A stretch of 64,000 bases of DNA from Mustelus asterias (lineage: Eukaryota): positions 77,004,001 through 77,068,000 of the forward strand of contig NC_135811.1 of the NCBI RefSeq assembly GCF_964213995.1. The letters are read 5' to 3'. This document shows, piece by piece, positions 7,385-8,540 of this stretch (position 1 is its first letter; every line of letters starts with the position of its first letter). The position numbers and the translations under genes were made by a program. The notes beneath the pieces are model-generated. The model made no database searches and had not been told where the DNA came from. It was given only the letters and a program-made list of their open reading frames with translations.

Positions 7385-7863
7385 CTTTATATGTTTTATG
7401 TTTTTAACCCTATCCTTTTCAATAGTGAGTGAAAGTTTTTTTTTTAAGGAGATTTGTTGGGCTGACTGGCCATGTGGAATTGCCCCTTAGGGTCAGGGGG
7501 ACTAACAGGTAAGTACGTGGGGTTATGGGGATAGGGCCTAGGTGAGATTGTTATTGATGCAGGTTTGATGGGCTAAATGGCCTCCTTCTGCCCTGTAGGG
7601 ATTCTATGTAAAAGGCCCTTTGGCCCATTGCATCTGCACCGGTTAAAGACAAACCACCAACTATCCAGGTCCATTGTAAGCATGAACCTGATTACGTTGC
7701 TGGCGAGGGAGTGGCAAAAATGTTGGTGTTCATTCGGATTTCAGTAGCGCAAGTTAGCGAGGACATTAGTCTTTATTGTAAGGGGATCAGAGCACAAGAA
7801 TAAGGAAGTATTGCTGCAATTATTCAAACCACTTTCATGGTGTAAAGTGCTTTGTCATTATTT

Positions 7864-8176
7864 TTAAAATACTTTTCCAATTCAATCAAATCAAGTCCAA
7901 TTCAGAGTCTCAACAAGTTGAGACATTTCCGATCCAGGCTGACAAGACAGGGCATGCAATCCTCTACCCTGTCTTGGGCCTGATCTACATGAGCCGAGCT
8001 GATTGGAGTAGGCAGACATCTCTGCCCCCCCAAGCTTGATCTCATTTGCATCTTAGCCAAAAGGCCGAGATGCCGCTTCTAAAAATTGCTTCATATGAAA
8101 ATGAAGCTCAAATGCAACCCAATGACCTCAACCAAGTGCAGCATCAGCATAACTACACTTGATCTTAGCCAAAAGG
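7864..8176 (-). mobile_element. U2 snRNA-headed short retroposon (SINEU/Keno-derivative-like)
   Basis: 8152-8176 = U2 nt 13-37 exactly; 8050-8070 = U2 nt 7-27; A-rich 3' end; direct repeat gtcattattt at 7854-7863 and 8176-8185. Confidence 0.75.
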
Positions 8177-8242
8177 TCATTATTTCGAATCAATCAGTTC
8201 CCGTTGACTTTTAACATTTTAACCCTCCCAGCCTCGATGTAG

Positions 8243-8540
8243 ACACGGTGGCACAGTTGTTAGCACCTCTACCTCAGAGCGCAAGGGAACCCAGGTTCAA
8301 TTCCCGGCTTGGGTCACTGTCTGTGTGGAGCCTGCACATTCTCTCCGTGTCTGCATGGGTTTCCTCCGGGTGCTCTGGTTTCCTCCCGCAGTCCAAAGAT
8401 ATGCAGATTAGATGGATTGGCCATACGTGGGGTTAGGGGGATAGGTCGGAGGGGAGGGCCTGGGCAGGATGCTCTTTTGGAGTGTCAGTGCAGAGCTGAT
8501 GGGCCAAGAGGCCTCTTTCAGTACTGTAGGGATTTTATGG
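8243..8540 (+). mobile_element. HE1-like V-SINE
   Basis: head, V-domain, tail. Confidence 0.8.

Follow-up and report, generated by a model that had tools for sequence, protein, structure and literature searches.

Short interspersed elements (SINEs) headed by small nuclear RNA (snRNA) sequence have been described as SINEU-1 to SINEU-3, units of less than 500 nt with a U2-derived head, an A tail and target duplications, attributed to a Tx1-type partner (Kojima 2015, PMC4494074). They prefer the transposon Mariner-N4_AMi as target and are linked to Tx1-Mar. In the accessible part of that paper none is reported outside crocodilians and no promoter was found; their transcription was left as an open question, the upstream snRNA promoters being lost on retroposition. 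The accessible part of PMC5786205 mentions SINEU only in passing. U2 genes are also the insertion site of the LINEs Keno and Utopia, which are separated by the type of their endonuclease, apurinic-type in the former and restriction-like in the latter, and some vertebrate Utopia families are weakly specific (PMC4640811, in its accessible part). Dependence on the promoter of a target gene is illustrated by R2, which is co-transcribed with the 28S gene (PMC4494074, likewise), is served by RNA polymerase I and carries a self-cleaving ribozyme.

The window analysed here comprises 64,000 nucleotides of Mustelus asterias (contig NC_135811.1, positions 77,004,001 to 77,068,000). The insert under study lies on its minus strand, from 8185 to 7854, in the order 10-bp duplication, U2 nt 13–37, a body of about 275 nt, A-rich tail and second duplication (Table 1). 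It is a 5'-truncated copy of a multicopy U2-headed SINE family. A preceding reading of this DNA, made without any search (the sequence-only reading), had reported a stretch of U2 nt 13–37, a flanking 10-bp direct repeat, a duplicated U2 stem-loop I and an A-rich end; all were recovered, and the U2 stretch was identical to the genome's own U2 gene. The internal stem-loop I copy is likely a relic of an older head. No Rfam family reached its gathering score within the window, and none of the joints listed for contigs of four runs crossed the insert. Beside it, window positions 8240–8520 and 7440–7610 hold further high-copy repeats, with very high depth.

Table 1. Features of the U2-headed SINE copy, in window positions.
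Feature	Position	Strand	Remarks
Target site duplication (TSD), 5' copy, 10 bp	8176..8185	-	Last base doubles as U2 nt 13
U2 head, nt 13–37, 5'-truncated	8152..8176	-	Identical to own U2 gene; other copies from nt 1
Antisense arm of hairpin 1, predicted partner of the U2 head	8116..8142	-	Folds; three inverted nested insertions
Antisense arm, opposite strand	8116..8142	opposite	Mimic of the U2 target site
Small hairpin	8088..8107	-	Folds; length differs among subfamilies
Internal U2 stem-loop I copy, longer closing stem	8048..8073	-	Near-constant across 14 subfamilies
Octamer at the junction of two predicted stems	8044..8051	-	Sequence and fold
Hairpin 2, apical loop hypervariable	7989..8045	-	Folds, subfamily alignment
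Hairpin 3, base architecture as hairpin 2	7931..7985	-	Holds the clearest two-sided change
Hairpin 4	7907..7924	-	Folds
Degenerate pentamer run 5' of the tail	7877..7904	-	Resembles the pentamer satellite by the C21 U2 cluster
A-rich tail	7861..7876	-	Sequence
TSD, 3' copy	7854..7863	-	Sequence

The copy number of the body was determined in two ways. BLAST with the body as query gave 1,928 candidates in the 3.68 Gb genome (40 scored), the best other copies being 93–97% identical, and an internal 23-mer had 5,097 exact matches genome-wide, with 0 for the reversed control. Related sequence was present in runs of six organisms, with shares of 0.28–0.60, and was abundant in the four runs examined. 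A processed U2 pseudogene, holding U2 sequence only, was rejected on these counts since the body is shared throughout the family, and the insert had rightly been set apart from an ordinary truncated U2 pseudogene.

Heads were scored in 94 copies, sampled in position order along contig C1 from its first 90 loci. A U2 head was present in 82 copies, starting exactly at U2 nt 1 in 18 of the 82 and ending at U2 nt 35–40 in 75. The common junction at nt 37 suggested by the window copy thus stood as a cluster of head ends that depend on the subfamily, not as nt 37 alone. Units were about 305–335 nt long, with subfamily-specific head-body junctions. TSDs were scored in the 141 copies with a readable 3' end, drawn from the C1 sample and from the 30 top-scoring BLAST loci. 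A duplication of at least 9 bp was present in 54, 30 independent ones of 9–19 bp being retained after tandem and over-long cases were dropped, and the rest of the 141 were mostly tandem or without a detectable TSD. The 139 head-to-tail copies fell into 14 clusters of at least 4, each differing by 1.1–3.2% from its own majority, and the family comprises at least 14 young subfamilies. Multicopy units, U2 heads, A tails and distinct TSDs were all found, in agreement with the non-autonomous U2-headed SINE that had been proposed.

In 20 of the 94 copies a neighbouring copy was present within about 480 nt. The spacers of such tandems are local target duplications, so that the tandems represent serial insertions. 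A satellite or a retrozyme with a hammerhead ribozyme, on the model of newt satellite 2, was rejected because of these spacers and because no ribozyme was found with Rfam. At one locus (L064 = G000:C12:36053000-36059000) SINE copies that belong to different subfamilies, six or more in number, stand in train, with the same target duplication recurring between them (L028).

U2 genes were located by sequence pattern, with 104 matches in the genome. Type 1 genes form a 1,833-bp tandem array on C24 and type 2 genes a 448-bp tandem array on C21. The two types have different upstream DNA (upstream regions in L061 and L070) and several coding differences; a short motif ending near -45, recognised by eye, is common to both and may be a proximal element. 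Both arrays contain a LINE with its poly(A) joined to U2 nt 38 and a U2 head at its 5' end, and its 3' flank in U2 is the flank quoted for Keno in the accessible part of PMC6136364. Its ORF1 has RNA-binding and zinc-knuckle domains, and its ORF2 an apurinic-type endonuclease (PF03372), a reverse transcriptase (PF00078, partial and below its cut-off), PF13966 and a zinc finger; an open ORF2 of 1,144 codons is present in the C21 cluster. Homologue searches with the LINE proteins returned only unnamed proteins, 25–47% identical over long matches. The LINE can be regarded as Keno-type on its 3' flank and endonuclease type, and its domain layout and target would place it in the Tx1 clade. In the arrays examined, every LINE found joined to U2 belonged to this apurinic-type family, with no restriction-like one among them. 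Utopia, named in the sequence-only reading as a possible source, shares the U2 insertion site and is not supported, since the LINE found there encodes an apurinic-type endonuclease. Keno itself had 286 exact 3' ends, of which 0 of the first 30 lay at U2, these being dispersed.

SINE copies were also joined to U2 sequence. In six of them the SINE tail meets U2 nt 38 exactly, and two further copies (L195 and C24:43060545) show this junction with small changes; the nt 38 junction of these eight copies is the published Keno site, and some of them lie inside the U2 arrays. Copies in U2 genes are located at C21:28064191, C24:43060545 and C14:62229.7 kb. In the type-2 array, one locus (L070) consists of U2 upstream DNA, U2 1–39, body, tail and U2 38 to the end. 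Type-2 upstream DNA together with the U2 start had 13 exact matches, which led into a SINE (six), Keno (three) or intact U2 (four). A type-1 array gene is occupied by a SINE, then a truncated Keno, then a second SINE; U2 38–53 is duplicated there, and one of the SINEs stands behind type-1 upstream DNA. Some in-array copies are degenerate. Source-like copies such as had been suspected behind a U2 promoter region do follow U2 upstream DNA at the Keno site.

Some dispersed copies have carried U2-gene DNA with them. In L067, U2 32–52 precedes and U2 38–58 follows the SINE, with an outer duplication; L193 has an outer duplication that encloses U2 upstream DNA of about 90 nt; and L066 and L195 have array DNA on both sides. 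Dispersed copies with U2 flanks or array DNA are thus descended from copies inside U2 genes. The last 5–7 nt of type-1 upstream DNA are kept by three dispersed copies of three subfamilies, and lend modest support to an origin in U2 genes. At 18 of the first 30 U2-pattern loci (two overlap), U2 pieces ending at nt 52–57 stand before the SINE head, which fits target duplications inside U2 genes or, equally, template jumps onto U2 RNA. The SINE copies at the Keno site in U2 arrays and the U2 flanks on dispersed copies are new here.

On these data the SINE is likely a non-autonomous partner of Keno, with source copies that are transcribed from the U2 promoter lying outside them. Copies would insert at U2 nt 37/38 and at look-alike sites. 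The window copy has no A or B box of the pol III consensus and contains five runs of at least four T, and no tRNA gene was found when it was tested as a classical pol III SINE. Since pol III boxes are lacking and T runs are present, RNA polymerase II is the enzyme that would start at U2 +1 when a copy sits in a U2 gene. Its transcript would contain U2 nt 1–39, the body and the A-tract, probably continuing into U2, and the head is predicted to fold back on the antisense arm of the body, as in Keno RNA. Keno proteins would take up this RNA, the ORF2 protein nicking a U2-like site and reverse transcription being primed at the A-tract. Most products would land off target, without a promoter, and rare hits in U2 genes would give new source copies; such rare renewal of the sources would account for the many subfamilies and for the additional U2 pieces found at 5' ends. 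Against this reading, the copies seen at the U2 site number about 8 among more than 5,000, so that priming would nearly always have to occur at the internal A-tract, or the RNA would have to end there; Keno shows the same pattern.

Alternatively, dispersed copies could be the sources, with read-through transcription starting at unrelated promoters upstream of them, as proposed by Kojima for crocodilian SINEU (PMC4494074, accessible part), with the U2 pieces acquired by template jumps and the U2-gene copies as dead-end by-products of endonuclease preference. This would be compatible with more than 99% of the copies lying off target, and U2 pieces also precede upstream-DNA fragments (L193, L213, L214) in what may be template jumps. 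We nevertheless consider it improbable, given the two-sided U2 flanks or U2-array DNA in the dispersed L067, L193, L195 and L066, the heads starting exactly at U2 +1 and the type-1 upstream remnants in three subfamilies; moreover, no common non-U2 5' extension was detected by eye in the 94 copies.

The dispersed insertion sites resemble the U2 site. Among 30 independent dispersed sites, A was found at -3 in 17 and G at -2 in 16, matching U2. AGY at -3..-1 was present in 10/30, against 4.3% expected (p 3e-7), and ARY in 14/30, against 9.9% expected, where the expected values take account of the site method, which sets +1 as A and -1 as non-A. Three inverted nested SINE insertions lie at the antisense arm of another copy, that is, at a mimic of the U2 site. 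A SINE was present within 1 kb of 7/30 dispersed Keno 3' ends, one of the seven being an array-derived composite, against about 0.3% expected from copy density, and near 1/25 copies of an unrelated LINE family used as control.

Transcription from U2 genes combined with mobilisation mainly by another LINE, either a generic L1 or another Tx1-like family, is very unlikely, since SINE copies share the exact junction of Keno, prefer U2-like sites where dispersed and cluster with that LINE. It would accord with a 3' tail that has only a few bases in common with Keno and with the existence of further young LINE families, such as one with 2,756 candidates, 97–99% identical. The 3' end of this second LINE is nested in L033, and the family, the one compared in this respect, was disfavoured as partner because it ends without poly(A) and has a SINE near only 1/25 copies. 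At that locus (L033:1040-2200) the internal U2 relic of an older SINE is split by U2 sequence that runs to about nt 95, together with the second LINE's 3' end, in a tandem duplication.

The insert folded at -132.5 kcal/mol, with a z of -7.9 against shuffles, and 0 of 100 shuffles were equally stable. In the consensus fold a long hairpin, formed by U2 head and antisense arm, is followed by the stem-loop I copy, a pair of hairpins that resemble each other and one small hairpin. Among gapless columns, 24/151 paired and 42/103 unpaired ones varied between subfamilies (p 2e-5), a comparison that is partly circular because the structure was obtained from the same sequences. Although 98% of cells pair, two-sided changes were present in 2/75 pairs and 417 of 500 shuffles scored as high, so that covariation as proof was not reached and the stacked hairpins noted in the sequence-only reading stand as a predicted, unproven structure.

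A comparable fold was predicted for Keno: within its first 60 nt the U2 head is folded back with a z of -3.9 (-1.6 for U2 alone), in the register of the SINE. The 2x2 loop at U2 nt 23–24 is common to both, the sequence of the arm being different. The SINE body gave no significant alignment with the Keno 5' or 3' UTR, 91 and 15 of 100 shuffles, respectively, scoring as high. A deletion derivative of Keno was rejected for this reason; the Keno-derived unit transcribed from a U2 promoter that had been proposed keeps its promoter part, in the source-like copies behind U2 upstream DNA, and loses its derivation from Keno. The SINE likely depends on Keno yet is not visibly derived from it. The family suggests a 5' hairpin, rather than a common 3' tail, as what LINE and SINE share.

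More tentatively, and with much less confidence than the partnership with Keno, the SINE may be a parasite of the U2 gene, its RNA being capped, exported and re-imported like an snRNA, via the snRNP assembly route. The Keno-like 5' hairpin would then have been copied for uptake by Keno proteins and would hide the branch-point-pairing bases of the head, a spare stem-loop I would be displayed, and the transcript would extend to the Sm site and the 3' end of U2.

The octamer reported from the sequence alone is present, at 8051-8044, and is probably incidental, its letters lying across two predicted stems. As a promoter it was disfavoured, since neither the 400 nt preceding type-1 U2 genes nor the spacer of the type-2 genes contained an exact octamer. 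That tandem copies transcribe each other, with the octamer acting as distal enhancer for the next copy downstream, is the least probable reading: in 27 tandem pairs the octamer does lie 166–246 nt before +1 of the following copy, near the 220 bp of vertebrate snRNA distal elements (PMC4494074), and 20 of the 94 copies have a close neighbour, but the U2 upstream stretches examined have no exact octamer, the SINE body has no sequence in common with them, the octamer letters are taken up by the two stems, and the spacers indicate serial insertions.

The family shows these features of SINEU: a U2 head, a short multicopy unit, an A tail with TSDs and a target preference shared with a putatively Tx1-type LINE. 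Further points in common with SINEU (PMC4494074) are the repeated 5' addition of snRNA pieces, a U2 relic within the element, copies arranged in tandem about a duplication and T runs that argue against pol III. It differs in having copies that occupy the Keno site of U2 genes and follow U2 upstream DNA, and in that its head is part of a predicted long hairpin. With Keno it shares the U2 3' junction, the 5' U2 head, the A tail, a relaxed specificity in this genome and the predicted fold-back of the head in register, whereas Keno is autonomous, with ORF1 and ORF2, and has no detectable homology to the SINE. As in R2, expression would depend on the promoter of the target gene, here a pol II snRNA promoter and without an Rfam ribozyme. 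In the literature, searched by title and the start of the abstract, no paper describing a SINE family hosted in U2 genes was found; Repbase and Dfam lay outside this comparison, so that a catalogue entry may exist. With the family, snRNA-headed SINEs would extend beyond crocodilians, and their transcription may find an answer in source copies that reside in U2 genes at the target of a site-specific LINE. For a Keno-type endonuclease, the family also offers natural off-target sites by the thousand.

Several further observations concern the U2 loci. At G000:C24:44815181-44935887 (L062, L063) U2 matches recur with a period of 8,028–8,055 bp, and the unit examined there contains U2 genes and a Keno copy with broken ORFs, which suggests that a Keno-plus-U2 unit was amplified in tandem. 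The type-2 cluster at C21:28044000-28084000 (L205-L208) is densely filled with Keno copies, which lie in both orientations. A pentamer satellite, one block of which has 662 copies, breaks up the cluster and resembles the pentamers preceding the SINE tail. Several type-1 U2 genes (L065) carry short duplications of about nt 17–37, which may be traces left by unsuccessful insertion at the Keno site. L052 and L042 are short U2 retrocopies that stop at about nt 56–58, the target duplication of L052 overlapping the U2 end.
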